From an uncultured Sphingomonadaceae bacterium (GTDB lineage Bacteria > Pseudomonadota > Alphaproteobacteria > Sphingomonadales > Sphingomonadaceae), in the NCBI GenBank assembly GCA_947501695.1, contig CANMWO010000002.1, forward strand, positions 573,327 through 637,326: a stretch of 64,000 nucleotides of DNA. The letters are read 5' to 3'. Within the stretch, counting starts at the first letter, position 1. Every line of letters starts with the position of its first letter. A model generated the notes under the pieces. It had not been told where the DNA came from and ran no database searches. It worked only from the letters and a program-made list of their open reading frames with translations. Shown here one piece after another: positions 17,467 to 64,000 of this stretch. The translations under genes were made by a program, and so were the position numbers.

Positions 17467-17485
17467 GGGCAGCACTCCTATTTAG

Positions 17486-17497
17486 TTGTCCGGACAA
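17486..17497. promoter_or_regulatory. palindromic operator site 2 (TTGTCCGGACAA)
   Basis: Exact palindrome in the 74 bp divergent gap between 17466(-) and 17541(+). Confidence 0.85.
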
Positions 17498-17540
17498 ATT
17501 TACCTTGCCTTCAACCCCTGGTTTCTGTCAACATCAAGCC

Positions 17541-23409: not shown

Positions 23410-24504
23410 GTGACCGCCGCTGGTTCCTCTCTTGCCGATTTTAACAGGCTTGCCGCCGACAAGCAGATTGACGATGATGCAAATTATCAGTGGCGGGTTG
23501 CTGCACGGCCCGTTGGTAACGTCGTGCCATCGGACTTTGAGTGGGCAGTGACAGACATTCCCGAACCAGGCGATGGCGAAGTGCTGTTGAAAACCCATTA
23601 TCTCGGCCTTGCGCCCGTCATGCGTTTCTACATGCAGGGTACCGGTGCTGCTGGCGAGCGCGTGCTGGAACCCGGTGATGTAATCCATGGCCGCGGCGTC
23701 GCACAGGTCGTCAAATCCCGTCATCCTGACTGGCGCGAAGGCGAGATGGTGCAAGGGCAGATGGGTTGGCAAATCTACAAAGTCTCTCGCATGACACCGC
23801 AGGAGAAGTTTTTCCGGATGCCGCCCAATGGTCTGCCAGCAGCGCTCGGCTCAGGTGTGCTTGGCATGACCGGCCTGTCTGCTCATGCCGGATTATTCGC
23901 GTGCGGTGATCCCCGAAAGGGCGATCGGATGGTCTTGTCAGGGGCCGCAGGCGGTGTTGGATCCATGGTCAGTCAGCTGGCGGCCAATGTCGCAGACTGT
24001 GAGGTTATTGGCATGGCGGGAGGGCCCGAAAAATGCGCGTTCATTCTCGACCACGGCTGCTCGCAGGCGATTGATTATAAAGTGGAAGATATCGACGAAC
24101 GATTAGACATATTATGCCCCGACGGTATTGATTTATATTTCGACAATGTCGGCGGGGAAACGCTGGAATCCTGTCTCGAACGGCTGCGGCTCCATAGCCG
24201 GGTCGTGCTGTGTGGATCGATCAGCGAATATACCAGAGAAAAGCCGTTCAAACTTTCCAACTATACCCGGCTGCGCGCCACCGAAACGCGGATGCAGGGC
24301 TTTTTTGTTTATAATCATCTGGACCGCTGGGATGCGGTTATGGATGATCTGGCGGGATGGATTCACGACGGCAAGCTAAAACCGGTACAAGATGTCGAAC
24401 AGGGCTTTGAAAATATGCCACGCGCGCTCGCCAACCTTTACTATGGTCAGAATGTTGGCGTGCAATGTTGTTCGGTCCGGGGTGAGCCAGATAATTGGAT
24501 TTGA
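23410..24504 (+). CDS. NADP-dependent oxidoreductase (alkenal/ene reductase-like MDR)
   Basis: GVLGMTGLSAHAGL, LSGAAGGVGSMVSQLA, YFDNVGG, RVVLCGSISEY; paralogue of 1644..2645. Confidence 0.9.
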   Translation: MTAAGSSLADFNRLAADKQIDDDANYQWRVAARPVGNVVPSDFEWAVTDIPEPGDGEVLLKTHYLGLAPVMRFYMQGTGAAGERVLEPGDVIHGRGVAQVVKSRHPDWREGEMVQGQMGWQIYKVSRMTPQEKFFRMPPNGLPAALGSGVLGMTGLSAHAGLFACGDPRKGDRMVLSGAAGGVGSMVSQLAANVADCEVIGMAGGPEKCAFILDHGCSQAIDYKVEDIDERLDILCPDGIDLYFDNVGGETLESCLERLRLHSRVVLCGSISEYTREKPFKLSNYTRLRATETRMQGFFVYNHLDRWDAVMDDLAGWIHDGKLKPVQDVEQGFENMPRALANLYYGQNVGVQCCSVRGEPDNWI

Positions 24505-29468: not shown

Positions 29469-30233
29469 TCAAAACTCCGGTTTTCTCTTTTCCATGAAAG
29501 CGCTCACGCCCTCTTTGAAATCATCGCTTTCAAAAGCAGAGTCAAACAACCGCTCCGTCTCCGCATCATCATCGGCTTGCCCGTCCAATATCCGTTTGAT
29601 GATGGATTTGCTCATGGTCTGGCTGTGCGAAGAAACCGACGCCATAGTGTTCGCTAACGCTTCAGCCTCGCTATAGGGATCATCAACCAGCAAGGTAATC
29701 AAGCCGATATCCAAGGCTTCCTGTGCTGACAGCAATTGCCCGGTGAATAATATCCGCTTCGCTTGCGATGGTCCGACCAGATCGACGAGCAATTTGGTAT
29801 CGTGCAATGGATAGACCAGCCCCAGTTTGGAAGGCGTAATTCCGAAACGTGCTTTCGGACCAGCCACACGCATGTCGCAGGCCAGCGCTATGCCGCAACC
29901 ACCGCCGACACAATCACCATCGATGATCGCGATAGTCGGCTTGGGTGCCTGCGCTAGCTCATGCTGTACCTTACCAATGGCCGCCTGATTTTTGGCCCGC
30001 CATTCAGGATCGGTAGAGCCAGTTGCAAATTCACCAATATCGGCACCGGCACAAAAGGCGCTGTCCTTTCGGCTTGCATGCAAGGTCAACACGCGGATCG
30101 CATCGTCGGCCATTGCATCAGCCAGCAATTCGGGCAGCAGTTCCCACATCGCTTGATTAAACGCATTGCGCTTTTCCGGCCGGTCAATGATCAGATGTGC
30201 GACCTTGCCCTCTTTTTCGAGCCGCAATGTCAT
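29469..30233 (-). CDS. enoyl-CoA hydratase/isomerase (crotonase)
   Basis: RPEKRNAF, FCAGADIGEF, IDGDCVGGGCGIALACDMR, FGITPSKLGL, EGVSAFMEKRKPEF. Confidence 0.93.
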   Translation of the reverse strand: MTLRLEKEGKVAHLIIDRPEKRNAFNQAMWELLPELLADAMADDAIRVLTLHASRKDSAFCAGADIGEFATGSTDPEWRAKNQAAIGKVQHELAQAPKPTIAIIDGDCVGGGCGIALACDMRVAGPKARFGITPSKLGLVYPLHDTKLLVDLVGPSQAKRILFTGQLLSAQEALDIGLITLLVDDPYSEAEALANTMASVSSHSQTMSKSIIKRILDGQADDDAETERLFDSAFESDDFKEGVSAFMEKRKPEF

Positions 30234-31096
30234 GCAGGATCAACCTTCGCCAGATGCTGTGCAATCTGATGCCGGGTGGTCACCCAGACATGTTTTTTCG
30301 ACCGCACATGTTTCAGAAATTCTTCGAACGCCCAAATCCGGCCCGGACGACCAATGATGCGTAGATGCAGGCCGAGCGACATCATCTTGGGATTGCCTTC
30401 TTCGCCTTCGCGATAGACTTGATCAAAATTGCGCTTGGCATAATCCAGCCATTGCTGCGGTGTCATTGCCGGGTCGGTCCACATTTTCATATCATTGCTA
30501 TCGAGCTGATAGGGCACAATCGCAATCGGTTTTTCCGGAACCGTCTCCTTGTCCCAGAACGGAATATCGCCCGAATAATCATCCATATGATAGGCGAAGC
30601 CCTCTTCGATCAACAGGCGGCGGGTATTATCGGTATGGAAATAGCGCGACAACCATCCATAGGGCCGCGTGCCCGTGGTTTTCTCAATCGATGAAACAGC
30701 CTTGCGAATGAAATCGCGTTCCTTTTCCTCATCCATCTTGAACTGATGCACCCAGCGATAGCCATGGCTTACTGGTTCATGGCCCATGTCGGCGATAGCC
30801 TCGGCAATCTCGGGATGATTTTCCAGACTCATCGCGGCGACGGTCCAGCTGGCCATAATCTCATATTCTTTCAGTAGCTTAACGATGCGCGGCGCACCCG
30901 CCTTGATACCATAGAGATAGTTGCTCTCATTGCCATAATTGCGGATCGGCGATTTAATGTGGATGCCCAGCTCATCAACCGGTTCCATTCCGCGATCGCC
31001 GCGCGCAATCGTCATTTCACTGCCTTCTTCAACATTGACGACAATGCTCAGCGCCATTTTCGCATCGTCTGGCCAGTCCATCCGTTCTTCGATCAA
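30230..31096 (-). CDS. PuuE/allantoinase-like polysaccharide-deacetylase-fold amidohydrolase
   Basis: VVNVEEGSE, ESNYLYGIKAG, SHGYRW, RPYGWLSR, MMSLGLHLRIIGRPGR. Confidence 0.88.
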   Translation of the reverse strand: MIEERMDWPDDAKMALSIVVNVEEGSEMTIARGDRGMEPVDELGIHIKSPIRNYGNESNYLYGIKAGAPRIVKLLKEYEIMASWTVAAMSLENHPEIAEAIADMGHEPVSHGYRWVHQFKMDEEKERDFIRKAVSSIEKTTGTRPYGWLSRYFHTDNTRRLLIEEGFAYHMDDYSGDIPFWDKETVPEKPIAIVPYQLDSNDMKMWTDPAMTPQQWLDYAKRNFDQVYREGEEGNPKMMSLGLHLRIIGRPGRIWAFEEFLKHVRSKKHVWVTTRHQIAQHLAKVDPA

Positions 31097-31896
31097 TGCA
31101 TTTCCTCCCCGCCGGAAACGTTAAGCGCCTCTCCTGTAACATAAAAGGCATCGTCGCTAGCCAACCATGCACAGGCAGCTGCCGTATCCGATGGCAAACC
31201 GGGCCGCCCCATCGGATTTTTCGTGCTCATGTTAGCGAGATAGGCTTCGACATTTTCAAAACCGAGCAGCTTGGAAAAATATTCATTCTGCTGGGCGCCA
31301 AGACCGGTGGTCACATGATTGGGGCAAACTGCGTTGACCGTAATGCCGTGCGTACCAAGCTCCACTGCGCTGGCCCGGGTAAGGCCCACCATGCCATGTT
31401 TGGAACTCACATAAGCGGGCAGATGCGGGAAGCCGGTTTTTGCGGCTTGTGATGCAATGTTGATGATGCGGCCACCATTGCCTGCTGCAACCATCGCTTT
31501 GGCAGCCGCCTGGGTACAGTAAAACGCGCCGGATAGATTCACACCGATGACCTGATCCCATTCCTTGGCTGTATCGACCTCAAGCAGCGGCTTCATCATA
31601 AAACCGATACCGGCATTGTTGACGAAAATATCAACCGCACCAAAGGCATCCACGCTTTGATCGACCAAGGCCTGACATTGCACCGCATTACTGACATCAC
31701 AGGCGATGGTCGCGACTTTGGCGCCACGCCCACGTAATTCTTCAGCGACCCCTTCTTCCTGATCGCCGATGGCAAGGTCTGAGACGACACAATTGGCGCC
31801 TTCATCAGCAAAGCGTTGCAATATGCCTTGTCCCAGCCCCTTTTCCTTTCCGGAACCGGTAACGACGATCGTCTTTCCTGCAAATTTCCCGGACAT
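31093..31896 (-). CDS. short-chain dehydrogenase/reductase
   Basis: TGSGKEKGLG, FVNNAG, IASQA, YVSSK, VNAVCP. Confidence 0.92.
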   Translation of the reverse strand: MSGKFAGKTIVVTGSGKEKGLGQGILQRFADEGANCVVSDLAIGDQEEGVAEELRGRGAKVATIACDVSNAVQCQALVDQSVDAFGAVDIFVNNAGIGFMMKPLLEVDTAKEWDQVIGVNLSGAFYCTQAAAKAMVAAGNGGRIINIASQAAKTGFPHLPAYVSSKHGMVGLTRASAVELGTHGITVNAVCPNHVTTGLGAQQNEYFSKLLGFENVEAYLANMSTKNPMGRPGLPSDTAAACAWLASDDAFYVTGEALNVSGGEEMH

Positions 31897-32204
31897 TAGA
31901 GATCTTCTGTAAGTATGAATTGTGGGCCGTCGGCATAGTCCTGGAAAGGTGCCGCCATCGCTTGAAATTCTGGGTCCGACACATCGGTGACAAATTCATC
32001 CATGCCGGTAATATCGATAATCTCGAAATATTCGTAAGGCGACGGATCATCCGAACCGAACAGGCCGGTTGCTTTGTGGACGGTGAAAGACGTGACCGAA
32101 CTCAGCGCGCTGGCTGCGGGAATATCGCGTGTTTTCGCCCACTCCTCATATTCACCGATATCGACGCCTTCTTTCAGGTTAAACAAAACAATGATGCGCA
32201 TCAT
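31896..32204 (-). CDS. RedY/PigK/HapK-like (EthD-type dimeric alpha+beta barrel) protein
   Basis: IIVLFNLKEGVD..EYEEWAKTRDIP...L.SV..F.V......PYEYFEIIDI resembles the REDY-like HapK family from memory; needs HMM confirmation. Confidence 0.68.
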   Translation of the reverse strand: MMRIIVLFNLKEGVDIGEYEEWAKTRDIPAASALSSVTSFTVHKATGLFGSDDPSPYEYFEIIDITGMDEFVTDVSDPEFQAMAAPFQDYADGPQFILTEDL

Positions 32205-33412
32205 CTCTCTCCTCTATATGTTTCCAAAAAAACTTCTGGCACGCGATAGGCGGACAGCTTTTCGTCCAGCTCTCGCGCTAGTGCAAATAGCCCCAGTTCA
32301 TTACCTGCAGCGCCGATGAGCTGCATGCCAACCGGCAAGCCATCGCTTGACCAACCTGCGGGGATACTGATCGCGGGTAATCCGGCGATATTGGCTAAGC
32401 AAGTAAAGTCGGCCTGATTGGCTGGTGCCTTATCGTCATGGCTGAATGCGACTTGCGGCGCGGTAGGTAGCAAAATCGCGCCATGTTGCTCCACTACCGC
32501 CCTGATAGCATCGGTTGTTTCGGCGAGAGTTTTCTGGTCTTCCGCTAAGTCAGCAGCACTGCGTTCCGTGCCAAAGGTCAGCAGAAACTTGAGATGGTCA
32601 GACAGGCCGTCAGGGTTATTTTTCAGTACATCTGCCAGTTCTTGGGACAGGCCCAGCGAGGACAGGATAAACCCGGCAAAACGGATGCGGGTCAGCGGGT
32701 GCGGCAAGGTAAACTTCTGTTTGGCTCCAACGGCCTCCCGAGCCCTTTCGTAGCCTTCAAGCACAGCGGGCTCACAGTCCACGCCGCCAAGATTTTCTAA
32801 TAATGCTATATTTTCAATGACTTGCGGATCAGCGAGATTCATCAATACCCGCGAAACCGTCTCCAAGTCCTCCAGTGATCGCGCCAGCGGACCGATGCTG
32901 TCGAGCGATGAATCCACAATCTCAAGTCCATCCTGACTGATCGCACCGGCGGTCGGTTTCAGACCATAGATGCCGCAATAGGCCGCCGGAATCCGCACCG
33001 ATCCCATCGTGTCCGTACCCAATGCAGCATCGCAAAGTCCTGCCGCCACCGCAGCACCGCTGCCACCCGAAGAACCACCCGGCGTATAACTGATCTTGTG
33101 CGGATTATGGGTCGCACCGAAAAACGGATTGTCCGTCTTGGCACCAAGCGCCGCTTCTTCCATGTTGAGCGTGCCGATTATCGCAGCGCCAGCCGCGCGC
33201 AGTTTCGCAACAGCTTCGGCGTCCTTACCGGCGATGCGATCCTTGTAAGCCTTCAAGCCGCCAGTCCAGGGCAATCCCTCAACCGCAATATTGGCTTTGA
33301 TGCCAATAGTCAGATTACTCAGCGGCCCGTCACCAAGCCGCGCATCCCGATCGAAATCGGTAAAGGCATTTAGCGCAGCATTAGCACTTTCAAGATCATC
33401 CCAATGGAGCAT
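32201..33412 (-). CDS. amidase (amidase-signature family)
   Basis: IGIKANI, TPGGSSGGSGAAVA, GTDTMGSVRIPAAYCG (Lys-cisSer-Ser triad). Confidence 0.92.
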   Translation of the reverse strand: MLHWDDLESANAALNAFTDFDRDARLGDGPLSNLTIGIKANIAVEGLPWTGGLKAYKDRIAGKDAEAVAKLRAAGAAIIGTLNMEEAALGAKTDNPFFGATHNPHKISYTPGGSSGGSGAAVAAGLCDAALGTDTMGSVRIPAAYCGIYGLKPTAGAISQDGLEIVDSSLDSIGPLARSLEDLETVSRVLMNLADPQVIENIALLENLGGVDCEPAVLEGYERAREAVGAKQKFTLPHPLTRIRFAGFILSSLGLSQELADVLKNNPDGLSDHLKFLLTFGTERSAADLAEDQKTLAETTDAIRAVVEQHGAILLPTAPQVAFSHDDKAPANQADFTCLANIAGLPAISIPAGWSSDGLPVGMQLIGAAGNELGLFALARELDEKLSAYRVPEVFLETYRGER

Positions 33413-37338: not shown

Positions 37339-38100
37339 ATGTCTGGGAGAGAAAATTTGGCCACCAAAAGCTCGGCGAAGAAAAAGCCTCGCTATCTGGA
37401 ATTGGCCGATGAACTGCGTGAAGCAGTTTTGCGCGGTGACTATTCCGATCCTGGCGATTTCCCAACCGAATCCGTCTTGTGCAAAAAATACGATGTGAGC
37501 CGTTTCACCGTCAGAGAGGCTTTGCGCAAACTGACAGCAGAGGGTCTGATCACCCGTAAACGTGGTTCGGGAACGGTGGTTCAGCCAGCAACCGCTCGCG
37601 CCGGTGCGCTGCATCAACCGCTCAGCAATGTCGGTGAGATTTTGCAGTATGCGCATGACACTACGATCAGCTTTGAACCAGGAAAACCTGGCGCGATTCC
37701 TCACGATGTCGCTGAACAGATTGATACCAAAGCCAAAGGTGATTGGTTTACTTTTCGCGGCAAGCGCACAAAGCTCGGTCGCAAGCGGCCGATTGCTGTG
37801 ACCGAAGCATGGGTTCATCCGGAGCTGGCGGACGCGGTCGCACAGATTGATATCAACGCCAAAACCCTTTTTGGGCAGATCGAAACTTTGGGGCAAGTCA
37901 GTGTGACTCGAGTGACGCAGGATATTCAAGCGATCAAGGGCACGAAAAAGATATTGGCGGACCTCGGCTTGGAAAAGGGCGATCCTGTGCTGCGTATCTT
38001 GCGCTGCTATTTTGACGAAACCGACCGGATGTTTGAGATTTCGGCGAGCTATCATCCCGGCGAACGCTTTGCCTATTCGATGCATATCGAGGTCGATTAG
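37339..38100 (+). CDS. GntR family regulator, HutC subfamily (wHTH + UTRA)
   Basis: PRYLELADELRE...FPTESVLCKKYDVSRFTVREAL...RKRGSGTVV; UTRA-type C-terminus (VTQDIQA, PVLRILRCYF, SYHPGERF). Confidence 0.92.
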   Translation: MSGRENLATKSSAKKKPRYLELADELREAVLRGDYSDPGDFPTESVLCKKYDVSRFTVREALRKLTAEGLITRKRGSGTVVQPATARAGALHQPLSNVGEILQYAHDTTISFEPGKPGAIPHDVAEQIDTKAKGDWFTFRGKRTKLGRKRPIAVTEAWVHPELADAVAQIDINAKTLFGQIETLGQVSVTRVTQDIQAIKGTKKILADLGLEKGDPVLRILRCYFDETDRMFEISASYHPGERFAYSMHIEVD

Positions 38101-43049: not shown

Positions 43050-43061
43050 TTGTCCGGACAA
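43050..43061. promoter_or_regulatory. operator site 6 (TTGTCCGGACAA)
   Basis: Exact palindrome in the divergent gap between citE-like (-) and DUF1838-like (+). Confidence 0.85.
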
Positions 43062-54554: not shown

Positions 54555-54917
54555 ATGACAGAAGAAGTTTTCGACTGGATGGCAGCGGCCAATAAAAAAG
54601 CCAAAGGCAAACGACCAGAATATTTTGATGATCCCGAAGACGAACGGATGCTGTCGATCTTGATGGCCGTCGTCGGAGAAGTATCAGTGCTGCGCGAGCG
54701 CATGGATACCGTCGAACGCCTGCTCGATGCCAACGGTACGATCTCGCGTAACGATATTGAAAATTACGCGCCGGATAAACAAGCCGCATATGAGCGCGGT
54801 GCGATGATCCGCGAATATATATACCGCGTTATGCGCGGCCCGCATCAAATGGTGCAGGAACTGGAGCAAGTCGAGCCACCGGTTGAAGAGGTGAGCCGCG
54901 AACTCAAGGACATTTAA
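54555..54917 (+). CDS. small helical hypothetical protein (partner of methyltransferase)
   Basis: RPEYFDDPEDERMLSILMAVVGEVSVLRERMDTVERLL; homologous to 56651..56932. Confidence 0.75.
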   Translation: MTEEVFDWMAAANKKAKGKRPEYFDDPEDERMLSILMAVVGEVSVLRERMDTVERLLDANGTISRNDIENYAPDKQAAYERGAMIREYIYRVMRGPHQMVQELEQVEPPVEEVSRELKDI

Positions 54918-55645
54918 TGCAACACCGTATTATCGAAGGTCGTCTGGAATATACGTCACGCAAACCAGAAATGGCTGGGCAGAATCGCGGTTTTGAAACC
55001 TTCATGTTTACACATCATCACGACGGCAAAGTGACGATGCGCGCGCATTGCGAGATATATGAGCCAGAACCGACGGTAATGCGGGACATTATCTACGCAA
55101 TTGATGAAGACAATCAACCGATGGACTGTCATGTCCGGCTGACAGTCGGCGACAGCTTCATGGGTTCTGGTTGGATGCGGTTTGACGGAACGCATATCGA
55201 AATGGAATCCTATGGACCATCGATCGGACGTCTGTCCCAACGCGTAGAAGCGCAATTACCACTGGATGGTTTTGGCACGCACCCGATTGTCTCGGACGGT
55301 TATATGCTATCGACCAAGGACTGGGACAAAGACACAAAGCGCCTGCTCAATTGTTACCTGCCCTCCCCCGATCATCGCGGTGCCACGCCGCCGCAGATCG
55401 CTCAGGTAAAAATTGGAGCGGTCTATCTGGGAAAAGAGGAAGTAACCGTGAAAGCGGGAACCTTTCAATGCCAACATCTTCAATTTGTTGACGATGCCAG
55501 CATCGTTCCGGGGACCGGTGGCATGGCTGGCGAACATCCCGCCTATGATGTCTGGATCACCGATGACGAAGACGGCATATTTGTGCAGGGCGGCGTCGGT
55601 GGTTACATGATGACCTGGTACGAGCTGGTCGAACTTAAACGGTAA
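54917..55645 (+). CDS. hypothetical beta-rich protein
   Basis: 242 aa ORF coupled (TAATG) to the upstream gene; no family recognised. Confidence 0.68.
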   Translation: MQHRIIEGRLEYTSRKPEMAGQNRGFETFMFTHHHDGKVTMRAHCEIYEPEPTVMRDIIYAIDEDNQPMDCHVRLTVGDSFMGSGWMRFDGTHIEMESYGPSIGRLSQRVEAQLPLDGFGTHPIVSDGYMLSTKDWDKDTKRLLNCYLPSPDHRGATPPQIAQVKIGAVYLGKEEVTVKAGTFQCQHLQFVDDASIVPGTGGMAGEHPAYDVWITDDEDGIFVQGGVGGYMMTWYELVELKR

Positions 55646-56654
55646 TCATGATCTTGCCCATATGGGCACCGTTCTCCAGATGGGTGAACGCTGCGGGCGC
55701 ATCGCCAAAATCAAACACACTTTCGACCAGAAGTTCGATGTTGTTTTGGGCAACCACATCCAGCGCCTGCTGCAGCATTTGACGATCCCCGGACGCAATA
55801 CCCTTGATCGTTATATTCTTGCCTATCAGTGCGCCTTGACTGGCGCTGGATTGGTCCTGGGGTGTTCCTGAAAGCGCTCCAAGCGATCCAATGCGGGCAT
55901 TGACAGCGCAGGCCGCCACTGTCTCGCCCATCGCTGGAAATCCCAGCGTATCGACTACCACATCTGCGCCGCGACCACCTGTGGCTTCGAGCAACGCTGC
56001 GGCCCAATCGGGCCTGTCGCGATAATTTATGCCGAAATCAGCGCCCATTTCCTTTGCGCGAGAGAGTTTTTCGTCACTGGATGACGTGATAGCAAAATCC
56101 ATTCCCATCGCCTTCGCCAACTGCAGGGTAAATATCGATACACCGCCGGTTCCTTGCGCGAGTACAAGATTACCCGGTTTGGCATCTCCAAACGACATCA
56201 TGGCGTGCCAGACCGTGCTGCCAACGACGGAGAAGGTTGCCGCGCTGCTATCACTGACATTTTCAGGCACTATGATAGCGGCATTGGCCGGCAAAATAAT
56301 TTTCTCAGCCAGCCAGCCATTGGCCGTCACGCCAAGGTCCTTGCCAAATACCGCAAAGCTATAAGCGCCATCCAGCCAGGTCGCGAAATGTGGTGCCATA
56401 ATGCGCATGCCAACGTCCAGTCCCGAAACATCTGCACCGACAGCTTCAATCACACCGACGCCATCAGATAAAGGCACCCGATCTTCAGGCAAGTCCGTGC
56501 CATAATCGCCGCGCAGCACCATCAGGTCACGATAGTTGAGACCGGCTGCCGAGACCTTAATCAGAATTTCTCCGGGACCAGGCTCCGGTTCGGGATGATC
56601 TACTAGCTGCAGTCCGCCAATGCCGGTCCGTGAACCCATTTGCCATGCCTTCAT
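55635..56654 (-). CDS. zinc-type alcohol dehydrogenase-like MDR oxidoreductase
   Basis: LNYRDL, PLSDGVG, QGTGGVSIF.LQLAKA, TSSSDEKL, HMGKIMI. Confidence 0.9.
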   Translation of the reverse strand: MKAWQMGSRTGIGGLQLVDHPEPEPGPGEILIKVSAAGLNYRDLMVLRGDYGTDLPEDRVPLSDGVGVIEAVGADVSGLDVGMRIMAPHFATWLDGAYSFAVFGKDLGVTANGWLAEKIILPANAAIIVPENVSDSSAATFSVVGSTVWHAMMSFGDAKPGNLVLAQGTGGVSIFTLQLAKAMGMDFAITSSSDEKLSRAKEMGADFGINYRDRPDWAAALLEATGGRGADVVVDTLGFPAMGETVAACAVNARIGSLGALSGTPQDQSSASQGALIGKNITIKGIASGDRQMLQQALDVVAQNNIELLVESVFDFGDAPAAFTHLENGAHMGKIMITV

Positions 56655-56932
56655 GTGTCGTCACTCCCTTGCTCGCGCAGCGGCGCGAAAATACGATCAA
56701 TAAACTTTTGTAGCTTGGCTTCTCGGTCGGCCGCAGACGCTTCCAATCCTTCGAGCGCCATCAGTCGCTCTTCCTGAACCCACATTTCTTGCGCCATGTT
56801 CATAGCTACAGCGACAAAGCGATCCATGCCCGGATCGTCGAAAAATTGTGGCTTACCGTCGGGGCCGTAAATATCCTTCGGCGTATCATCCGGCCTAAAC
56901 GCCGGACCGGGCTCCTCGGTTTCTGCGCTCAT
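56651..56932 (-). CDS. small helical hypothetical protein (partner of second methyltransferase)
   Basis: KPQFFDDPGMDRFVAVAMNMAQEMWVQEERL; start at ATG 56932 overlapping the upstream TGA. Confidence 0.72.
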   Translation of the reverse strand: MSAETEEPGPAFRPDDTPKDIYGPDGKPQFFDDPGMDRFVAVAMNMAQEMWVQEERLMALEGLEASAADREAKLQKFIDRIFAPLREQGSDDT

Positions 56933-58116
56933 CGTTTCCATGCTCCGAAACCAAACCACATGATACCTTCCGCCAGCCGTCCGGTGGTTTCGCTATCAAC
57001 AGCGTTAGCGCTCTCATCCGCTATCGCTTGCGCAACGGCTTCCTCACCGTAAATGCCAATGCTGGGCACAACGAACTGGAAATAGTCATCGGCGGCAAAA
57101 CCACCCGCTTCGCAAAGCGCTGGAGGGCTCTCATCGCGATAGCCTTTGTAGAACGGCTCCGAGTTATACCAACTGTCCCAATCGAGATAAAAGCCGTCAA
57201 AGGCGTTCATCTGGTCATTAGGCGGCAACTCCATATGAAGCAGCAGACCGCCAGGCTTGAGCACGCGATAGGCTTCTTTAAACGCGGCTGCACGGGCCTT
57301 TTTAGAGAGCTCGTGAAGGAACATTGAAGAGAAGACGAGGTCAAAGCTGTCGTCCGGATAATCCAGCGCATCGGCGGACATTTGCGCGAAATCGACGTCC
57401 TGACCCTGCATTTTAGCGCGAGCCGAGGCATAGCGTAATCCGCCTGCCGCAGCGTCGATCGCTTCAATCTTCGCATCGGGATAAGTCTGTTTCCATGGTA
57501 ACGTATTGTGACCAATGGTGCAGCCAGTATCTAAAATGCTCTGCGGTTTAAAGTCCGGATACTTGCCCTTCACATAGGCGGCCATGGATAGACCAATATC
57601 ATCCAAGTTAGAGCCCATCAGACCCATGGAGAACACAGCCAACCCCTGATCATAAACTGCGCCGGCCTCCAGCGATTCCCCGCCCCGGGTATAGCTGCCC
57701 GGCATCAGGTGCACCTCTATCGCATCGACATTGCGCGGAATATCTAGATCGGGATTCAGTTTGAGCGCACCGGGCCGGGCCGCAACTTTCTGCGCTTCTG
57801 CTTCGAGCCGCTCGATATCACGGGCCACGACATCGCCCGAGGCGTGCCAGACCATTTTCTGAGCCTGCACCCGCATCGACGAGTAAATATTAAATGCCGG
57901 ATCACCGCGCAGGGCCTGATGTGCTTCGTTGCTGGTTTCCGGTGCGCGGCCTTTGTCACGGGCAAAAGCCGGTGCGGCACGCTTGTCATAAGCGGTACGC
58001 AAATCGCCTGCGAGATCGTTGAGAATAAACGCTCTGATGCCCGACACAAAGCGTCCACGCGCCGCTTCCTCTGCGGTCAATTCCGGTTTCATCGGATGTT
58101 GTAATTCTACGCCCAT
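56929..58116 (-). CDS. class I SAM-dependent methyltransferase-fold protein (paralogue of 53307..54551)
   Basis: HLMPGSY, AGAVYDQG, ILDTGCTIGH, FDLVFSSMFLHE; start at ATG 58116. Confidence 0.83.
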   Translation of the reverse strand: MGVELQHPMKPELTAEEAARGRFVSGIRAFILNDLAGDLRTAYDKRAAPAFARDKGRAPETSNEAHQALRGDPAFNIYSSMRVQAQKMVWHASGDVVARDIERLEAEAQKVAARPGALKLNPDLDIPRNVDAIEVHLMPGSYTRGGESLEAGAVYDQGLAVFSMGLMGSNLDDIGLSMAAYVKGKYPDFKPQSILDTGCTIGHNTLPWKQTYPDAKIEAIDAAAGGLRYASARAKMQGQDVDFAQMSADALDYPDDSFDLVFSSMFLHELSKKARAAAFKEAYRVLKPGGLLLHMELPPNDQMNAFDGFYLDWDSWYNSEPFYKGYRDESPPALCEAGGFAADDYFQFVVPSIGIYGEEAVAQAIADESANAVDSETTGRLAEGIMWFGFGAWKR

Positions 58117-59537
58117 CAGAAATTCTCCTCTGCAAAAGCTTCTATTCGCGCTGCCTCGCCCGATTGCCGGATCAGCGCCTGTTTGCGGAAAAAGCGCATC
58201 AATCCGCTTGCCCCCATCCGTGATGCACCAAGCCCGGAATGGCCAAAGCTCGATTTCTCCGCTTCCCAAACCATCGAGGTCAAGGAACCATCATTAATCG
58301 ATACTGCACCCGCATTGAGGCGCGATGCAACTATTTCAGCCTCTTGAGCTGATCCTCCAATGACCGCTGCAGACAAACCGAACTGGCTGTGATTGGCCAT
58401 CATCACGGCTTCATCCACATCGTCAAACACCCGTACAGGGATAACGGGTCCGAAATTCTCATCAGAAATTACCGTCATCGATGAGGTCACATTGGTCAGG
58501 ATCGTTGGCCGCAAATAAAGACCACCACCGAGTTTTTCGACTTTGCCGCCCGAAAGCAACTCCGCGCCTTTTTTAACCGCATCATCAATCTGAGACTGCG
58601 CTATCTGCGCCTGTTTCTCAAAGATAAACGGCCCGATATGGCCTTGGTTGATATCAGGATGATTGAGCTGCACCGCCTCTGCCTGAGCGACCAGACTGGT
58701 GAGGAAAGGGTCTGCGATTGCCTGGGCTACATAGACCCGCTCAATCGACTGACAGGCCTGACCAGTGTTGACGATACTCGCCCTAAGCGCCGTCGCGGCC
58801 GCCTTTTCGGGATCGGCACTGGCAAGAACGATCATCGGGTCTTTGCCGCCTAGTTCCAGACTTGCCGGAATAAAAGCTCTCGCCGCCGCTTGACCGACGT
58901 TGCGCCCCGTGGCGACCGATCCGGTAAAGCAAATATAGTCGACATGGTCGACCATCGCAGCACCCGTCGCACCGTCGCCTTCGATGATCGACAGCACAGT
59001 CGCCAGTTCCGGAACTTTCTGCACGGCTTCCATCAAAGGTTTGATAAAGCGCGGTGTCACTTCAGATGGTTTTACCAACACCGCCGATCCCGCCATCAGT
59101 GCCGGAATCGCGTCGATCAATGCCAGTGTCATCGGGAAGTTCCACGGGCTGATCACGCCAACCAAGCCAAAGGGCACCAGTCGCGTCGAAGTAGTGATCG
59201 TCGGCACCGATGTTGGTTGATCTACCGGCTGGCCATCGGCCATGAGCTGTGGCGCCATAGCGGCCCAGCGTCTTATCTGCCCCGGTACGCCCGCTGCTTC
59301 AATTTTTGAGATACCGCCGCGTCCGGTATCAGCAGTCAGGGCCGGAATGATATCGCCCAGATTGGCCTCTATCGCATCAGCCCATTGCAACAATATCCCG
59401 CCACGCGCTTCCGGTGTTTTCGCAGCCCAATTTTTTTGTGCATCGCGAAGCCGCTTTGCTTCGTCGGCAACCGCCTCAACGTCTAGGGGCGTGATTGCAT
59501 AGTCTGCTTTGCCCGTACGCGGATTGCGTATCTTCAT
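58116..59537 (-). CDS. aldehyde dehydrogenase
   Basis: VISPWNFP, VKPSE.TP, FTGSVATG, LELGGKDP, NTGQACQSIER, DENFGP. Confidence 0.94.
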   Translation of the reverse strand: MKIRNPRTGKADYAITPLDVEAVADEAKRLRDAQKNWAAKTPEARGGILLQWADAIEANLGDIIPALTADTGRGGISKIEAAGVPGQIRRWAAMAPQLMADGQPVDQPTSVPTITTSTRLVPFGLVGVISPWNFPMTLALIDAIPALMAGSAVLVKPSEVTPRFIKPLMEAVQKVPELATVLSIIEGDGATGAAMVDHVDYICFTGSVATGRNVGQAAARAFIPASLELGGKDPMIVLASADPEKAAATALRASIVNTGQACQSIERVYVAQAIADPFLTSLVAQAEAVQLNHPDINQGHIGPFIFEKQAQIAQSQIDDAVKKGAELLSGGKVEKLGGGLYLRPTILTNVTSSMTVISDENFGPVIPVRVFDDVDEAVMMANHSQFGLSAAVIGGSAQEAEIVASRLNAGAVSINDGSLTSMVWEAEKSSFGHSGLGASRMGASGLMRFFRKQALIRQSGEAARIEAFAEENF

Positions 59538-59577
59538 TGCTGTGCCTTCATTTTTGGGCCTTCATTTCTGGGCCTTC
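59534..59577 (-). repeat. three tandem 14-bp units (AGGCMCARMAATGA) at the deacetylase/ALDH junction
   Basis: Minus strand reads aggcccagaaatga aggcccaaaaatga aggcacagcaatga. Confidence 0.8.
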
Positions 59578-60485
59578 CAGCTATCGAGTATCGCATCACC
59601 CCGTGCGAACCCGATATCATTGTGCTCAGCAACGCCGGCAATCAACTTCTCAAAACTGCTAATGCGATAGGGTAGACCCATAATATAAGGCGTTAGGTGC
59701 ATGGGTAGCATTCGCCCGCCATTTTGCTCCGCCTCCGCGAGCAACCAATTGGCCGCATCGGTCATCTGCTGTGCATAGCTGTCAACCGATTGCTGCTGGA
59801 CATTGATGATCTGACGATCCGATAGTTCGTGGTTGAGCGGGATATTGGTAATCGCTCCCGAATCTGTCTGAAACGCATAAGGCAATTCGTCATTGGCCCA
59901 ATCACACATATAATCGACACCGGCCTCGGCGAGCAATTTTGCGGTGTTGAAACTTTGCGAACGCGCTATCGACAACCAGCCGCGTGGGCGCGTTCCGATC
60001 ACTTTTTCCAGCGCGGTGAGCGAACCTTCGATTAGCGCTTTCTCATCCGCTTCAGCCAGTCCGCTCGCAATAGTGCCGTTCATGTCGGTGCTATGCGCGA
60101 TAATCTCATGGCCGCCGGAGATGATGTCCTCAATCAACTGCGGATAGCGCTGGGCGATGACGCTGTTGGTCGCGACCGAAATCTTCGCGCCAACCTTCTC
60201 AAACGCACCAAGCAACCGGTAAATCCCGATCCGCGTGCCATATTCGCGCGCGGTATAATGGCGATAGTCGGGATAAGCGGTCTGCATATGCCCCGGCGCG
60301 CGGAACGGATTGTCGTTGGGCACCATCGGGAAATATTCGAGGGAGATGACCGGCCATATCATCAGCTTTTTGTCGCCCGGCCATTGCACCGGCTTGCGAT
60401 CAAACAGATTGCTGTACGGATAATAGTCATGGTCCATTCCGTGGCGGCGCTTGGGATAGTCGAGATAGCTGGCATCAAGGCTCAT
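59562..60485 (-). CDS. polysaccharide-deacetylase-fold (PuuE/PgdA-like) amidohydrolase
   Basis: VISLEYF, REYGTRIGIYRL, HEIIAH, PRGWLS, DWANDELP, HLTPYIMGLPYR. Confidence 0.87.
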   Translation of the reverse strand: MSLDASYLDYPKRRHGMDHDYYPYSNLFDRKPVQWPGDKKLMIWPVISLEYFPMVPNDNPFRAPGHMQTAYPDYRHYTAREYGTRIGIYRLLGAFEKVGAKISVATNSVIAQRYPQLIEDIISGGHEIIAHSTDMNGTIASGLAEADEKALIEGSLTALEKVIGTRPRGWLSIARSQSFNTAKLLAEAGVDYMCDWANDELPYAFQTDSGAITNIPLNHELSDRQIINVQQQSVDSYAQQMTDAANWLLAEAEQNGGRMLPMHLTPYIMGLPYRISSFEKLIAGVAEHNDIGFARGDAILDSWKAQK

Positions 60486-61375
60486 GATAAGTCTCCCGTC
60501 TGTTTGCGGAAGGCGTCAACTATATCACCAGCCTTGGTAATCCATGCCCGACCATCAGCCGCAATATGTTCAAGCACTGCTTCAAACGGACCAATGCGGT
60601 GAGGCTGTCCGATCAGATAGCTGTGCAGCGGGATGCACATCACCGTGCCGGACTGCGCGCCCTCTTCAGCGAGCCGGTCATATTGCCTGATCAGCGTATC
60701 GGCATATTCCCGCGGGCTCATGTTATAGATAAAGAACCCATAATGATCATTGACCTCTAGGCTGTAGGGTATCGCCGTCAGCTGGCCGGATTTCACCTTC
60801 ACGTCAGTCGGCTGGTCATCATGATAAAGGTCACAGGTATAATCCATGCCATATTCCGCGAGCAGGTCGAGCGTGCGCGGCGTGTGGGTCAGCGCTGGCG
60901 CCAGCCAGCCTTTGATCCGTTGGCCGGTAGCGCGCTGAACTGTTTCAATCGAATCCTCAATGATCGCGCGTTCCTGCGCCTCATCCATTCCATAAGAATA
61001 GCGTGTGTTGTAAATGCCGTGGCTGAAAAACTCCCAACCGCGCTGATTGGCATCCTCGACCACTTCGGGAATATGGTCACATAACGCCACGGACAAGCTG
61101 ACAGATCCCGGAAAACCATGCTTGGTCATCATCTCCGCCATGCGCCAATGTGACACGCGATTGGCATGATCGCGATGGCTGTAGCCGACCACATCGGGAT
61201 GAGGCTTTGGCCAACTCTTCCGATGCGGATTGACCGCCGGGTCGAGTTCATAAAATTCCAAATTGGGCGCGACCCAAACAGCGCAGGTTTTGCCGTCAGG
61301 CCACTCGATTTTCGGACGCCCACGATAGGGCGCATAATCAAATAGTCCCGGATCAGATTTCTGCACGTCAGACAC
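60482..61375 (-). CDS. polysaccharide-deacetylase-fold (PuuE/PgdA-like) amidohydrolase (tandem paralogue)
   Basis: VAPNLEFY, RDHANRVSHWR, WEFFSHG, IKGWLAP, DLYHDDQP, PYSLEVND, LHSYLIGQPHR. Confidence 0.87.
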   Translation of the reverse strand: MSDVQKSDPGLFDYAPYRGRPKIEWPDGKTCAVWVAPNLEFYELDPAVNPHRKSWPKPHPDVVGYSHRDHANRVSHWRMAEMMTKHGFPGSVSLSVALCDHIPEVVEDANQRGWEFFSHGIYNTRYSYGMDEAQERAIIEDSIETVQRATGQRIKGWLAPALTHTPRTLDLLAEYGMDYTCDLYHDDQPTDVKVKSGQLTAIPYSLEVNDHYGFFIYNMSPREYADTLIRQYDRLAEEGAQSGTVMCIPLHSYLIGQPHRIGPFEAVLEHIAADGRAWITKAGDIVDAFRKQTGDLS

Positions 61376-62055
61376 TAGCGCGCCTCCAACCAGTCAATCA
61401 CTGTCTGCACTGGCTCGACATCAGCATATTTAATCTGCAAGTCGGTCAGATTGGCAAAATGATAGCTTTCATGCTTGTCCGCACATGTTTCAATCGGCAC
61501 GATTGTGCGATAACCATAGCTTAAAGCATCCACCGCTGTGGCCCGAACACAACCGGATGTAGAACCGCCGGTGACAATCACCGTATCCACTTTATGCCAC
61601 GTCAAATAGCTCGCCAGTTGTGTTTCAAAAAAGGCGCTGGGCATGCGCTTGGTATATTGCAGGTCATTGGCATCGACCTCGCAACGCGGATCAAGTTTAT
61701 GCCGCTCGCTGTCATATTTGATATTCTGGAGCGAATCTTCGGTATCGGTGCGCGTGCCCCAGACACCGGCATCGCCTGCATCCGCTTTATAAGCGACACG
61801 ACTCCAGATCACCGGCATGGCCTTTGCTCGTGCCAAAGCCGATATCTGATTAATATAGTCAATCTGCTTCGGATCGGTCTCATAAGCGGTTTTGAACATA
61901 TCCATCCGGGTATAGGCTTGTTGTACATCAACATTGACGATGGCGAGCTTTTCTCCGAAACCGAATTTCTTGCGCGCTGGATTGCCAATCAACTCTTCAA
62001 AAATTTCCTTGGCCGTACGCCCGTCCTCAACCATTTTTGTGCCTTTGACGTCCAT
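61375..62055 (-). CDS. isochorismatase-family amidohydrolase (maleamate amidohydrolase NicF / N-carbamoylsarcosine amidase-like)
   Basis: NVDVQ (Asp), KRMPSAFF (Lys), TGGSTSGCVRATAVDA (Cys); start 62055 or 62034. Confidence 0.88.
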   Translation of the reverse strand: MDVKGTKMVEDGRTAKEIFEELIGNPARKKFGFGEKLAIVNVDVQQAYTRMDMFKTAYETDPKQIDYINQISALARAKAMPVIWSRVAYKADAGDAGVWGTRTDTEDSLQNIKYDSERHKLDPRCEVDANDLQYTKRMPSAFFETQLASYLTWHKVDTVIVTGGSTSGCVRATAVDALSYGYRTIVPIETCADKHESYHFANLTDLQIKYADVEPVQTVIDWLEAR

Positions 62056-62104: not shown

Positions 62105-62130
62105 TTGTCGAGACAAATTTGTCCGGACAA
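62105..62130. promoter_or_regulatory. tandem operator sites 10 and 11 (TTGTCGAGACAA; TTGTCCGGACAA)
   Basis: 62105-62116 (2 mismatches) and 62119-62130 (exact) in the 86 bp divergent gap. Confidence 0.85.
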
Positions 62131-62141
62131 ATATAGAGGTT

Positions 62142-63521
62142 ATGATTACACGCCATTTTATAGACGTCGCCAAAGACGGCAACACACGCCGTGTCCATTA
62201 TCGCATGGTGGGTAGTGGCCCGCCGCTGCTTATGGTGCATCAAAGCCCGCGCAGTTCAAAAGAATATGAAGCGCTGATGGTAAAATGGTCTTCCCATTTC
62301 ACCTGTATCGCCCCCGATACGCCGGGTTTCGGGCAATCCGATCCGCTGCCTGGTCATCCCGAGATCGCCGAATATGCCGATGCGGCCATCGAATTTCTTG
62401 ATGCTTTAGGTATCGAAAAATGCGCCGCTTATGGTTTCCATTCCGGCGGGATCATATTGGTGACAGCGGTCAAACGGCATCCGACTCGAATCACCACCTT
62501 GGCCGTCGGCGGCTATGCTATCTGGTCCGCCGAAGAAATGGCCTTGTTCAGCGACCGCTATCTGCCCGAATTTCATCCGTCCGATTATGGCGAGCATCTG
62601 ACATGGCTTTGGAATCGTATTCTCGAACAAAGCTGGTTCTTCCCATGGTTTGCGACAGATGATGCCCACCGGCTATCTGTCGCCAATGACGATCCGGCGC
62701 GGGTCGACGCAATCGTTCGCGAAATGCTTGATGCGGGCAATGCTTATCAGGCTGGCTATGGTGCCGTACTGCGCGCACCGCGGGATATTCCGGCGGTGGA
62801 TGCTGATGTCCCTCCTTGCCTGATCAGCGCCTATGATGGTGATCCGCTGCAGGAGCATATTGATCGACTGGGCGATATGCCGCCGACTTGGTCGGCCCAA
62901 AAAGTAGCTACCCCAGAGGACCATCAGGCCGTCAGCTTAAATCATTTATTGGCCTCCCAAACAGCAGTGGTCGATGGTTTGAATGAGGCCAGCGACGAAG
63001 GCTTTGTAGCGATACAAACCGATATCTTTAATGGCCTAATCCATTGGCGCGGAGCGCGCGATGCTGATGAGCTTGTTCTGCATGCGCCTGCCTATGCAGC
63101 GATAAATGATCAACCTGCCGGCCAGATTGCGATTGATTTGCCCGGTCATGGCTTGTCCGACAATTGGATCGGCGAAGCACCTGTCGCTTGGAGTGCATGG
63201 GATGATGTCATCACTGCGGTTGCAGATGCACTTGGTACTAGCGAGACAGTCTATCCCGCTCTGCCCGATGGCGCACCGGATCAACTCTATCCGGATTTAT
63301 CCCCTGACCGGTTTGGTAACTATCTGAATATGGCGTGGCAAATTGTTCGCGCCCGCCACATGTTTGCCCCTTGGTATCAGGTAGATGCAGCCCATGCCGT
63401 TGCTTTTGAGGAAGAGCGGCTGCGGCCTGAACATCTCGCCGCCGAGCATCTCTCGCTAATCAATGCATCAGCAGCCAAAGAATTTCACATCGCCCTCCAA
63501 TTCAGACAAAAGGAAAACTAA
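62142..63521 (+). CDS. alpha/beta-hydrolase-fold protein with His elbow plus degenerate second domain
   Basis: LLMVHQSPRSS, APDTPGFGQSD, AYGFHSGG; C-terminal half has AIDLPGHGLSD but no full second active site. Confidence 0.8.
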   Translation: MITRHFIDVAKDGNTRRVHYRMVGSGPPLLMVHQSPRSSKEYEALMVKWSSHFTCIAPDTPGFGQSDPLPGHPEIAEYADAAIEFLDALGIEKCAAYGFHSGGIILVTAVKRHPTRITTLAVGGYAIWSAEEMALFSDRYLPEFHPSDYGEHLTWLWNRILEQSWFFPWFATDDAHRLSVANDDPARVDAIVREMLDAGNAYQAGYGAVLRAPRDIPAVDADVPPCLISAYDGDPLQEHIDRLGDMPPTWSAQKVATPEDHQAVSLNHLLASQTAVVDGLNEASDEGFVAIQTDIFNGLIHWRGARDADELVLHAPAYAAINDQPAGQIAIDLPGHGLSDNWIGEAPVAWSAWDDVITAVADALGTSETVYPALPDGAPDQLYPDLSPDRFGNYLNMAWQIVRARHMFAPWYQVDAAHAVAFEEERLRPEHLAAEHLSLINASAAKEFHIALQFRQKEN

Positions 63522-64000
63522 TGGGAATCAGAGAAGACATGCCGCTTTTGGGCCGCCATGAAGGCGTTTGGGATGGCACCTACACCTATTTTAATGCACA
63601 GAATGAAAAGATTGACGAGCACGCTTCCCGCCTGCTGTGCCGTCTTCCTGATGACGGGGATATTCCTTACCACCAGACCAACCATTACAAATGGGCTGAC
63701 GGCAAAACCGAAATTCGCGAATTTCCTGCCGCTTATCATGACAAGCGCATATGGTGGGACAATGAACTGATAAAAGGCTGGGCCGCAGAAGTGCCGCTAG
63801 ACGAATATAATCGCACCATGATGTTGTATTGGCAGCGGCAAGGTGATCCATCGCTTTATCTATATGAGCAGATCCAGATTTCGGATGACGGTCAGAACCG
63901 CTGCCGGACATGGCATTGGATTCGCAACGGCATGTTGGAAACGCGGACCGCGATACAGGAGACTTTTGTGACCAAAGACTGGCGCAGTATTGATGCGGAA
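63521..64000 (+). CDS. DUF3598-like beta-barrel protein (runs off window)
   Basis: Hand-translated: MGIREDMPLLGRHEGVWDGTYTY...YHQTNHYKWADG...IWWDNE...NRCRTWHWIRNG..TRTAIQE; TAATG coupling; missing from the ORF track. Confidence 0.75.
   Translation, partial: MGIREDMPLLGRHEGVWDGTYTYFNAQNEKIDEHASRLLCRLPDDGDIPYHQTNHYKWADGKTEIREFPAAYHDKRIWWDNELIKGWAAEVPLDEYNRTMMLYWQRQGDPSLYLYEQIQISDDGQNRCRTWHWIRNGMLETRTAIQETFVTKDWRSIDAE

Follow-up and report, generated by a model that had tools for sequence, protein, structure and literature searches.

What is the substrate of two proteins with a polysaccharide deacetylase fold that are encoded in tandem behind an amidase and lack any signal for export? The question is raised by three genes at positions 59562-62055 of a 64,000-nucleotide stretch of contig CANMWO010000002.1 from an uncultured Sphingomonadaceae bacterium; this whole stretch is called the window below. 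The genes encode an isochorismatase-family hydrolase (ISO) and two deacetylase-fold paralogues (PDA1 and PDA2). A first-pass annotation had proposed an imide-opening and deamidation cassette at this place, and three coupled genes are indeed found there, all on the minus strand, by open reading frames (ORFs) and family matches. On balance, we lean towards the cassette being a self-contained nitrogen-release unit: a heteromer of PDA1 and PDA2 would open a cyclic imide, ISO would release ammonia and an acid of the alkyl-maleate type would be passed on to the products of neighbouring genes. The whole analysis consists of sequence comparison and comparative genomics.

A conserved three-gene unit

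61375-62055, minus strand: ISO, isochorismatase-family cysteine hydrolase (amidase; PF00857), longest ORF to 62130
60482-61375, minus strand: PDA1, PuuE-like cyclic amidohydrolase subunit of predicted catalytic type, CE4 fold without the metal triad (297 amino acids; PF01522)
59562-60485, minus strand: PDA2, degenerate paralogue of PDA1, probable non-catalytic partner (307 amino acids; PF01522)

Translation of ISO probably starts with the methionine at 62055, resulting in a protein of 226 amino acids that matches the orthologues (226-230 amino acids). The sequence reads TAGTG at the overlap of ISO with PDA1 and ATGA at the overlap of PDA1 with PDA2, and both junctions show translational coupling.

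At least 564 related loci are present in species genomes; all synteny counts refer to the best 80 of these, which are mostly from one order, the Sphingomonadales. ISO and PDA1 are present in all 80 loci and PDA2 in 79, the exception being a locus that stops at a contig edge. ISO is always directly upstream of PDA1, and in 77 of the 80 loci the three genes are collinear and adjacent: the arrangement is not a chance juxtaposition. Across these loci, PDA1 is 80-97% identical and the slowest-evolving protein of the neighbourhood, while identities are 74-98% for ISO and 59-94% for PDA2. PDA1 has thousands of close homologues, and the best 120 are all at least 78% identical and carry generic names only. 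By its best matches, the source of the window is a sphingomonad resembling Parasphingorhabdus/Sphingorhabdus; cultivable bacteria that carry the cassette include Parasphingorhabdus marina DSM 22363, Sphingobium chungbukense DJ77 and Novosphingobium sp. Leaf2. Across genera, the identity of PDA1 never falls below about 80%, while that of its neighbours falls to 52-62%; such a constraint is unusually strong for a catabolic enzyme.

Catalytic residues of PDA1 and PDA2

PDA1, PDA2 and a third deacetylase-fold protein of the window, encoded at 30230, all score above the gathering score of PF01522 (32.4, 27.6 and 45.7 bits, respectively; gathering score 23.1), and none reaches the cut-off of the PuuE model TIGR03212 (108.8, 100.6 and 249.5 bits; cut-off 424.6 bits). 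All three are single-domain proteins of about 290-310 amino acids with hydrophilic N-termini and have, as noticed in the first-pass annotation, neither a signal peptide nor a carbohydrate-binding module. The solved structures nearest to both PDAs are the PuuE allantoinases 1z7a and 3cl6 and the BpIH-like 3s6o (1e-22 to 1e-18; PDA1 matches 1z7a with 1.9e-22 and 3cl6 with 5e-22). PDA1 and PDA2 share about 30% identity with each other.

PuuE-type enzymes are metal-independent hydrolases of cyclic amides and imides that have Glu-His-Trp in place of the Asp-His-His triad of CE4 enzymes; the His of motif 5 (His259) is a proposed, unproven, catalytic residue (PMC11424739). These enzymes assemble into C4 tetramers, and each monomer has a small buried site (PMC3084791). 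That the fold includes both PuuE allantoinase and cyclic imide hydrolases, as the earlier annotation stated, is borne out by PuuE, BpIH and HxnM (PMC11424739, PMC9304392, PMC3084791).

When 61 PDA1 and 51 PDA2 orthologues are aligned with PuuE, PDA1 is in register with PuuE at Asn-x-Glu, at the motif-2 (SHG) His and at the motif-5 His (PuuE KMLSIGLHCRLIGRPAR, PDA1 TVMCIPLHSYLIGQPHR). PDA2 (RMLPMHLTPYIMGLPYR) has a Thr at the His259 position throughout the orthologous group of the window (ungapped alignment, 51 orthologues); a nearby His, two residues upstream of this position, is replaced by Asn in three of the 51. The Trp of the PuuE triad (Trp131 position) is replaced by Asn in PDA1 and by Met in PDA2. 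The CE4 Asp-His-His triad (TFDD, HxxxH) is absent from both proteins: motif 1 reads NLE-F in PDA1 and SLE-Y in PDA2 and motif 2 reads SHGIYN and AHSTDM, at places equivalent to D-x-D and H-x-x-x-H of the canonical CE4 structure 3rxz. The loop that follows motif 1, adjoining the active site in PuuE (PMC3084791), is about 16 residues shorter than in PuuE. The fold and the metal-independent catalytic residues of a cyclic imide hydrolase (EC 3.5.2.16) are present in PDA1 and in the 30230 protein, and not in PDA2, where the motif-5 His is missing.

A HMMER scan with PDA2 of 1.84 billion representative proteins (50%-identity clusters, E-values up to 1e-3) yielded 2964 matching clusters, and signature residues were counted in a set of 114 sequences made up of full-length representatives and fusion halves. 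The signature N-E-H-N-H is found in 35 of 46 PDA1-type representatives, and Glu, His127 and His259 are each conserved in 45 of the 46. The 66 PDA2-type representatives are more variable: Glu is present in 44 and His127 in 46, and the His259 position is occupied by His (30), Arg (15), Thr (14) or Ser (4). As far as residue counts can tell, such variation is what structural selection on a non-catalytic paralogue would produce. We rejected the reading of PDA2 as a decaying pseudogene, given the strong purifying selection on the gene.

Related clusters also contain single PDA genes whose catalytic signature is complete, indicating that the degenerate partner is a trait of this clade and not of the fold. 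One clade of such single deacetylase-fold genes (L032:1875-2810, L044:4101-5036, L045:4107-5036 and L051:1085-2032) has the full N-E-H-x-H signature; its gene is the last one of an operon of LeuCD, lyase and CoA-transferase genes in three genomes, and in one genome it adjoins a gene of the methylisocitrate lyase family and an ISO paralogue (32% identical).

Fusions of PDA1 and PDA2

PDA1 and PDA2 are fused to one protein of 628-686 amino acids in four independent 50%-identity clusters (P0124, P0127, P0136 and P0143). The N-terminal halves are nearest to PDA1 (35-44% identity, 176-240 bits) and the C-terminal halves to PDA2 (28-34% identity, 124-164 bits), which is the order of the separate genes. 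All N-terminal halves have the signature N-E-H-N-H, and the C-terminal halves have Arg at the His259 position. In addition, a PDA1-type gene precedes a PDA2-type gene in the distant loci L087 and L088.

Given these fusions, the strict adjacency, the ATGA overlap and the degenerate partner, the PDA1/PDA2 pair is, judged from its sequences, most likely one hetero-oligomeric enzyme with a non-catalytic subunit. Of the two options that had been suggested for the tandem pair, a heteromer or a split in substrate specificity, the first is thus favoured by the four fusion clusters and the degenerate PDA2-type positions, and the second is disfavoured. No heteromer of the PuuE/CE4 fold is described in the literature that was searched. 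Heteromeric hydrolases of an active subunit and a degenerate paralogue are known, for example the two-subunit metformin hydrolase of the ureohydrolase family. The likeness lies in adjacent paralogous genes, one retaining and one losing the catalytic residues, whereas fold and chemistry differ.

The amidase ISO

ISO matches PF00857 with 98.6 bits. Over its full length it matches the N-carbamoylsarcosine amidohydrolases 26st (1.2e-30) and 1nba (2e-25) in the PDB, and there are further matches to 4l07 (4.2e-29; 4l07/4l08) and to 3ot4/3uao (1.6e-19), which we take to be the Pseudomonas and Bordetella maleamate amidases, although the search tool gives no such name. The Asp-Lys-Cys triad of ISO aligns with 26st and 4l07, and the Cys motif TSGCVRATAVDA, which had been quoted before and is present in the translation, is kept. 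Fold, triad and the TSGCVRAT Cys motif are thus common to ISO, the NicF/Ami maleamate amidohydrolases and N-carbamoylsarcosine amidase (1e-30 to 2e-19). In contrast to the NicF/Ami systems, the context of ISO has no ring-cleaving dioxygenase (NicX), no deformylase and no maleate isomerase, and ISO remains below every NCBIfam equivalog cut-off (best 48.6 bits versus 195; RutB 29 versus 378; BiuH 28 versus 370). Of the label NicF-like, the isochorismatase-type amidase with its triad holds, while NicF-like and N-carbamoylsarcosine-amidase-like are inseparable by sequence.

Gene neighbourhood and product class

For a census of neighbours, ORFs within 10 kb of the cassette were clustered and their presence was recounted with tblastn. 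The most frequent genes encode an HMG-CoA-lyase-like protein (72 of 80 loci; PRK05692, 279 bits), a LeuC-like large subunit (70 of 80; PRK12466, 654 bits) and a LeuD-like small subunit (70 of 80; PRK01641, 221 bits), all three above the respective cut-offs, as well as a family III CoA-transferase (70 of 80) whose nearest matches, to succinate-glutarate and mesaconate CoA-transferases, remain below the respective cut-offs. These genes are usually part of a divergent operon headed by an alpha/beta hydrolase and a DUF3598-like gene. In the window, the following genes surround the cassette:

62142-63521, plus strand: alpha/beta hydrolase, head of the divergent operon (Pfam)
63521-64000 (window end), plus strand: DUF3598-like calycin barrel (Pfam and predicted fold)
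58116-59537, minus strand: ALDH, succinate-semialdehyde-dehydrogenase-like aldehyde dehydrogenase, accessory, next in the operon (PF00171, 353.7 bits; PRK09407, 371 bits, cut-off 521)
56929-58116, minus strand: methyltransferase-fold protein (variable operon tail; Pfam and NCBIfam matches)
56651-56941, minus strand: small partner protein (variable operon tail)
55635-56654, minus strand: quinone-oxidoreductase-like protein (variable operon tail)

Genes past the window end (base 64000) were assigned from the closest relatives, L001-L009, and by analogy with these the LeuC-like, LeuD-like, HMG-CoA-lyase-like and CoA-transferase genes should follow just beyond it. On the other side, seven minus-strand ORFs lie head to tail from about 62055 to 55635; PDA2 and ALDH are separated by a spacer of 24 nucleotides, and stops and starts overlap within the operon tail (55635-58116, from the ORF list of the window). 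The coupling to ALDH that the first-pass annotation had pointed out is seen here, where ALDH is the next gene, and is weaker than implied: ALDH follows PDA2 in 57 of 80 loci and is rarer than LeuCD, lyase and CoA-transferase. The tail genes (methyltransferase-fold, small partner and quinone-oxidoreductase-like) are present in only 26-34 of the 80 loci.

LeuCD-type enzymes hydrate 2-alkyl-maleates (citraconate, isopropylmaleate, dimethylmaleate) and enzymes of the HMG-CoA lyase family cleave thioesters of the citramalyl-CoA type. From this chemistry, the product of ISO would most simply be an acid of the alkyl-maleate type, and the substrate of PDA1/PDA2 its cyclic imide. The order of events proposed earlier, ring opening and then ammonia release, is thus supported by a gene context with hydratase, lyase and CoA-transferase in 70-72 of 80 loci. 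Genes for purine or ureide degradation (urate oxidase, HIU hydrolase, OHCU decarboxylase, allantoate pathway) were found neither in the window nor in the related loci.

Some loci vary this theme. Three loci (L051, L057 and L069) have another LeuCD pair and a lyase of the methylisocitrate lyase family directly behind the cassette and in its orientation. The fusion locus L084 has an amidase-signature enzyme as its amidase and an MmgE/PrpD protein as its hydratase and retains the HMG-CoA-lyase-like and CoA-transferase genes, together with genes for a glyoxalase-fold protein and a GntR regulator. The scheme common to these loci is ring opener, amidase, (de)hydratase acting on a free unsaturated or hydroxy acid, CoA-transferase and C-C lyase, and because it survives the replacement of two steps by unrelated families, the reaction types are well evidenced. 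The L084 fusion protein itself (L084:5641-8957 and flanks) has 636 amino acids and is encoded in one operon with the MmgE/PrpD protein; an ABC transporter and a GntR/FCD regulator are encoded nearby.

A shared operator and the deacetylase-fold gene at 30230

The 86-nucleotide divergent gap between ISO and the alpha/beta hydrolase gene contains two palindromic operators, TTGTCGAGACAA and TTGTCCGGACAA, at 62105-62130. The consensus TTGTCyrGACAA is found at ten sites exactly and at two further sites with one mismatch in the window, with 1.8 sites expected, and none of 100 shuffled sequences reached 12:

15865, 17486, 22364, 22412, 22605, 43050, 44834, 46535, 49273, 62105, 62119, 63733 (window positions): TTGTCyrGACAA sites

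Nearly all sites are in promoter gaps, and these comprise eight promoter regions in addition to the ISO gap, namely those of two TonB-dependent receptors, of a major facilitator superfamily (MFS) gene, of other genes of the island and of the gene run 43007-28565. The site at 43050 heads a run of 14 genes that contains a HutC-type GntR regulator (37339-38100), and it is probable from the distribution of sites that they define one GntR (HutC-type) regulon across the island. By its operator sequence, the cassette is tied to the whole island.

The 14-gene run includes itaconate-pathway-like genes (RipB/Ich-like, 240 bits, and RipC/Ccl-like, 231 bits, both below cut-off), two PrpD genes, two CoA-transferase genes and the third deacetylase-fold gene:

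30230-31096, minus strand: deacetylase-fold protein of the PuuE clade (signature NEHWH; PDB 1z7a, 7.6e-64)

Alone of the three deacetylase-fold proteins, the 30230 protein has the complete Asn-Glu-His-Trp-His signature, and the NVEEG and SHGYRW patterns that had been read from it are both present in its translation. Its description as a third copy is right for the fold; however, the protein belongs to a different clade, with a true PuuE-type triad, and to a separate operon of the same regulon. Its neighbours have a non-purine context: enoyl-CoA hydratase, short-chain dehydrogenase/reductase (SDR), a HapK-like protein, an amidase-signature amidase (32201-33412) two genes away, a PaaK-like ligase and PrpD. 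Together with the cassette, the contents of the 14-gene run suggest a regulon with two parallel sets of ring opener and amidase and two modules for branched C5 dicarboxylates. The HapK-like protein (31896-32204, minus strand, 102 amino acids) matches the Pfam family HapK (REDY-like, prodiginine clusters) with 45 bits and is encoded between the SDR and the amidase-signature amidase.

Proposed pathway and alternatives

From the observed gene order, coupling, residue conservation, fusions, synteny and shared operator we infer complex formation, reaction types and substrate class as follows. PDA1 and PDA2 would together make up a single cyclic amidohydrolase of the PuuE/imidase type, cytoplasmic and independent of metal. 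The chemistry would take place in PDA1, with Asn-x-Glu, the motif-2 His, an Asn in place of the PuuE Trp and the motif-5 His, and PDA2 would be a structural or substrate-shaping partner of the hetero-oligomer, possibly in an alternating alpha2-beta2 ring by analogy with the C4 tetramer of PuuE. The enzyme would open a small cyclic imide, most likely an alkyl-substituted ring of the maleimide or succinimide type, to the half-amide, which ISO would convert to ammonia and an alkyl-substituted maleate-type di- or tricarboxylate. The products of the divergent operon would then hydrate this acid (LeuCD-like), activate it (family III CoA-transferase) and cleave it (HMG-CoA-lyase-like), modelled on the route from citraconate via citramalate and citramalyl-CoA to pyruvate and acetyl-CoA.

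Several observations speak against this pathway. The adjacency of LeuCD, lyase and CoA-transferase genes is correlative, and loci that are dominated by Sphingomonadales are not independent observations. ALDH, the methyltransferase pair, the quinone oxidoreductase, a CN-hydrolase-like protein and an FAD oxidase have no role in the model. The residue of PDA1 at the Trp131 position differs between alignments, being Asn in the HMMER pairwise and the large alignment and the adjacent Tyr in one small alignment. The PDA2 orthologous group retains the motif-1 Glu and the motif-2 His and has conserved motifs of its own (LNHELSDRQ, TPYIMGLPYR), and PDA2 may have a catalytic role through other residues. 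Finally, ISO scores marginally higher for N-carbamoylsarcosine amidase than for the maleamate amidases, and a ureide substrate is possible.

In such a ureide route, PDA1/PDA2 would open a hydantoin- or dihydropyrimidine-like ring and ISO would act as N-carbamoyl-amino-acid amidase, producing ammonia, CO2 and an amino acid. The top PDB match of ISO fits this, as does the hydrolysis of the hydantoin ring by PuuE, the nearest solved relative of the PDAs (PMC3084791), and a gene of the CN-hydrolase family, which includes carbamoylases, is part of the wider cluster. We nevertheless consider the route unlikely: the most constant neighbours act on dicarboxylic acids (unsaturated or hydroxy) rather than on amino acids, there is no aminotransferase, amino-acid oxidase, racemase or urease/allophanate gene conserved beside the cassette in the related loci, and the L084 amidase is an amidase-signature enzyme, not of the carbamoylase type. 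It is likewise doubtful that PDA1 and PDA2 are two independent active enzymes, which could either attack opposite carbonyls of an unsymmetrical imide or combine a ring opener with an enzyme that deformylates or deacetylates the nitrogen of a linear intermediate. Throughout the PDA2-type clade every catalytic position varies, the two domains are joined in gene order in four independent fusions, which speaks for a single physical unit, and the strict order of PDA1 and then PDA2 holds in distant families, even though PDA2 is under purifying selection (59-94% identity, long invariant motifs) with its motif-1 Glu and motif-2 His retained, single PDA genes with the full signature indicate that the fold can work alone, and the CE4 fold includes deformylases as well as deacetylases.

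It is very improbable that the database names are right and that the PDAs are polysaccharide or peptidoglycan deacetylases, or a plain pair of PuuE allantoinases in purine catabolism. Homologues are recorded as 'polysaccharide deacetylase family protein', 'allantoinase' or 'peptidoglycan/xylan/chitin deacetylase', and PF01522 scores are above the gathering score. However, a secreted sugar deacetylase is ruled out by the missing metal triad, the missing signal peptide and carbohydrate-binding module and the context of a catabolic operon. A true allantoinase is ruled out by PuuE model scores of about a quarter of the cut-off, by the triad residues, with the PuuE Trp replaced and the loop after motif 1 shortened, and by a gene context in window and related loci that is free of urate- and allantoate-pathway genes.

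Relation to known systems

PuuE allantoinase of Pseudomonas (3CL6, 1Z7A) is a cytoplasmic, CE4-derived barrel without metal triad and with a small buried site, and PDA1 shares its Asn-x-Glu and the His residues of motifs 2 and 5. Unlike the homotetrameric PuuE, PDA1 and PDA2 are two paralogues that occur paired or fused; the Trp is replaced, the loop is shorter and the context is not one of purines. Imidases of this fold are BpIH of Burkholderia phytofirmans, which is about 91% identical to PDB 3S6O (PMC11424739), and the cyclic imide hydrolase HxnM of A. nidulans, whose step in the fungal nicotinate pathway precedes that of the amidase HxnN (PMC9304392). With BpIH, the cyclic imide hydrolase (CIH) of P. 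putida and HxnM/HxnN, the cassette shares the two-step logic of ring opening to a half-amide and a dedicated amidase, and the signature of the 30230 protein is exactly that of BpIH and PuuE. In contrast to PDA1/PDA2, these imidases are single-gene homomers, their partner amidases are of other families and the products are glutaramates rather than maleamate-type acids.

The logic of imidase and then amidase is also found in Blastobacter-type imide metabolism. The nicotinate fermentation of Eubacterium barkeri employs a dimethylmaleate hydratase (LeuCD-type) and a 2,3-dimethylmalate lyase, and the classical route from citraconate to citramalate, citramalyl-CoA and finally pyruvate and acetyl-CoA disposes of alkyl-maleates. 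Compared by type, these are the enzymes encoded next to the cassette (LeuCD hydratase, and either an HMG-CoA-lyase-like lyase with CoA-transferase or a lyase of the isocitrate lyase family); what the cassette adds is a front end that hydrolyses imide and amide. A literature search identified no pathway that combines these families, no bacterial breakdown of alkyl-maleimides and no paper on any member of the cassette, and a paper on a catabolic operon for riboflavin/lumichrome does not involve these families.

The principle of imidase plus amidase is thus already known. New, at the level of gene and protein comparison, are the Glu-His-Asn clade and its obligate pairing or fusion with a degenerate paralogue, the isochorismatase-type amidase as fixed partner and the link to LeuCD, lyase and CoA-transferase genes. 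If the proposal is true, the pair would add to the PuuE/imidase class a new form with two subunits, one of them a pseudo-enzyme, and a large block of annotation would be corrected, as hundreds of genomes have the unit under the misleading names 'polysaccharide deacetylase' and 'isochorismatase'. It would also offer an entry point to a catabolic regulon of Sphingomonadales that turns a nitrogen heterocycle into branched C4-C5 dicarboxylates. Industry employs imidases of this fold to desymmetrise imides (PMC11424739), which makes a new clade with a different triad of practical interest.

A more specific and rather speculative idea is that the cassette is the nitrogen-releasing core of a bacterial pathway dedicated to alkyl-maleimides (hematinic acid, methylethyl- or methylvinyl-maleimide), monopyrrolic fragments that arise from the oxidation of chlorophyll, haem and bilins. 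After ring opening by the heteromer and release of ammonia by ISO, LeuCD-type hydration, CoA transfer and an HMG-CoA-lyase-like cleavage would split the substituted maleate into pyruvate and a short acyl-CoA or glutaryl-CoA; larger precursors would be handled by the calycin-barrel (DUF3598-like) proteins, MFS transporter and TonB receptors of the regulon. The idea stems from the alkyl-maleate-type downstream enzymes, from a barrel fold in common with bilin lyases and nitrobindins and from marine and alga-associated samples; nothing else is specific to tetrapyrroles. Sequencing runs that contain the locus are essentially of DNA and bear coded names, apart from the labels 'algae metagenome' and 'marine metagenome'. 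For the maleimide-type remains of chlorophyll and haem in soils and in the sea, the cassette is a plausible candidate for a missing step of turnover.

Further features of the window

The divergent alpha/beta hydrolase has only generic relatives in the PDB. The DUF3598-like protein encoded next to it (63521-64000, plus strand; L002:7355-7852) is predicted to form a calycin barrel (predicted local distance difference test, pLDDT, 90.7) that is nearest to BFA1, Ycf58, a DUF3598 protein, the bilin lyase CpeS and nitrobindins, all at about 12% identity, which is too unspecific to suggest a ligand. A predicted beta-barrel (pLDDT 90) is also encoded at 54917-55645 (plus strand), by a gene found in 57 of 80 loci: this protein of 242 amino acids has no family match and resembles only the DUF1849 structure 6ntr (template modelling score about 0.6), with no functional hint. 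Two further plus-strand genes are adjacent to operators: one for a protein resembling flavin amine oxidase and phytoene desaturase (17253-18950) and one for an oxidoreductase of the alkenal/one-reductase type (ADH_N_2; 23410-24504). In the region of the spacer between PDA2 and ALDH (59534-59577), the motif AAATGAAGGC(C/A)CA is repeated, creating two tiny ORFs that are chained by ATGA-type overlaps.

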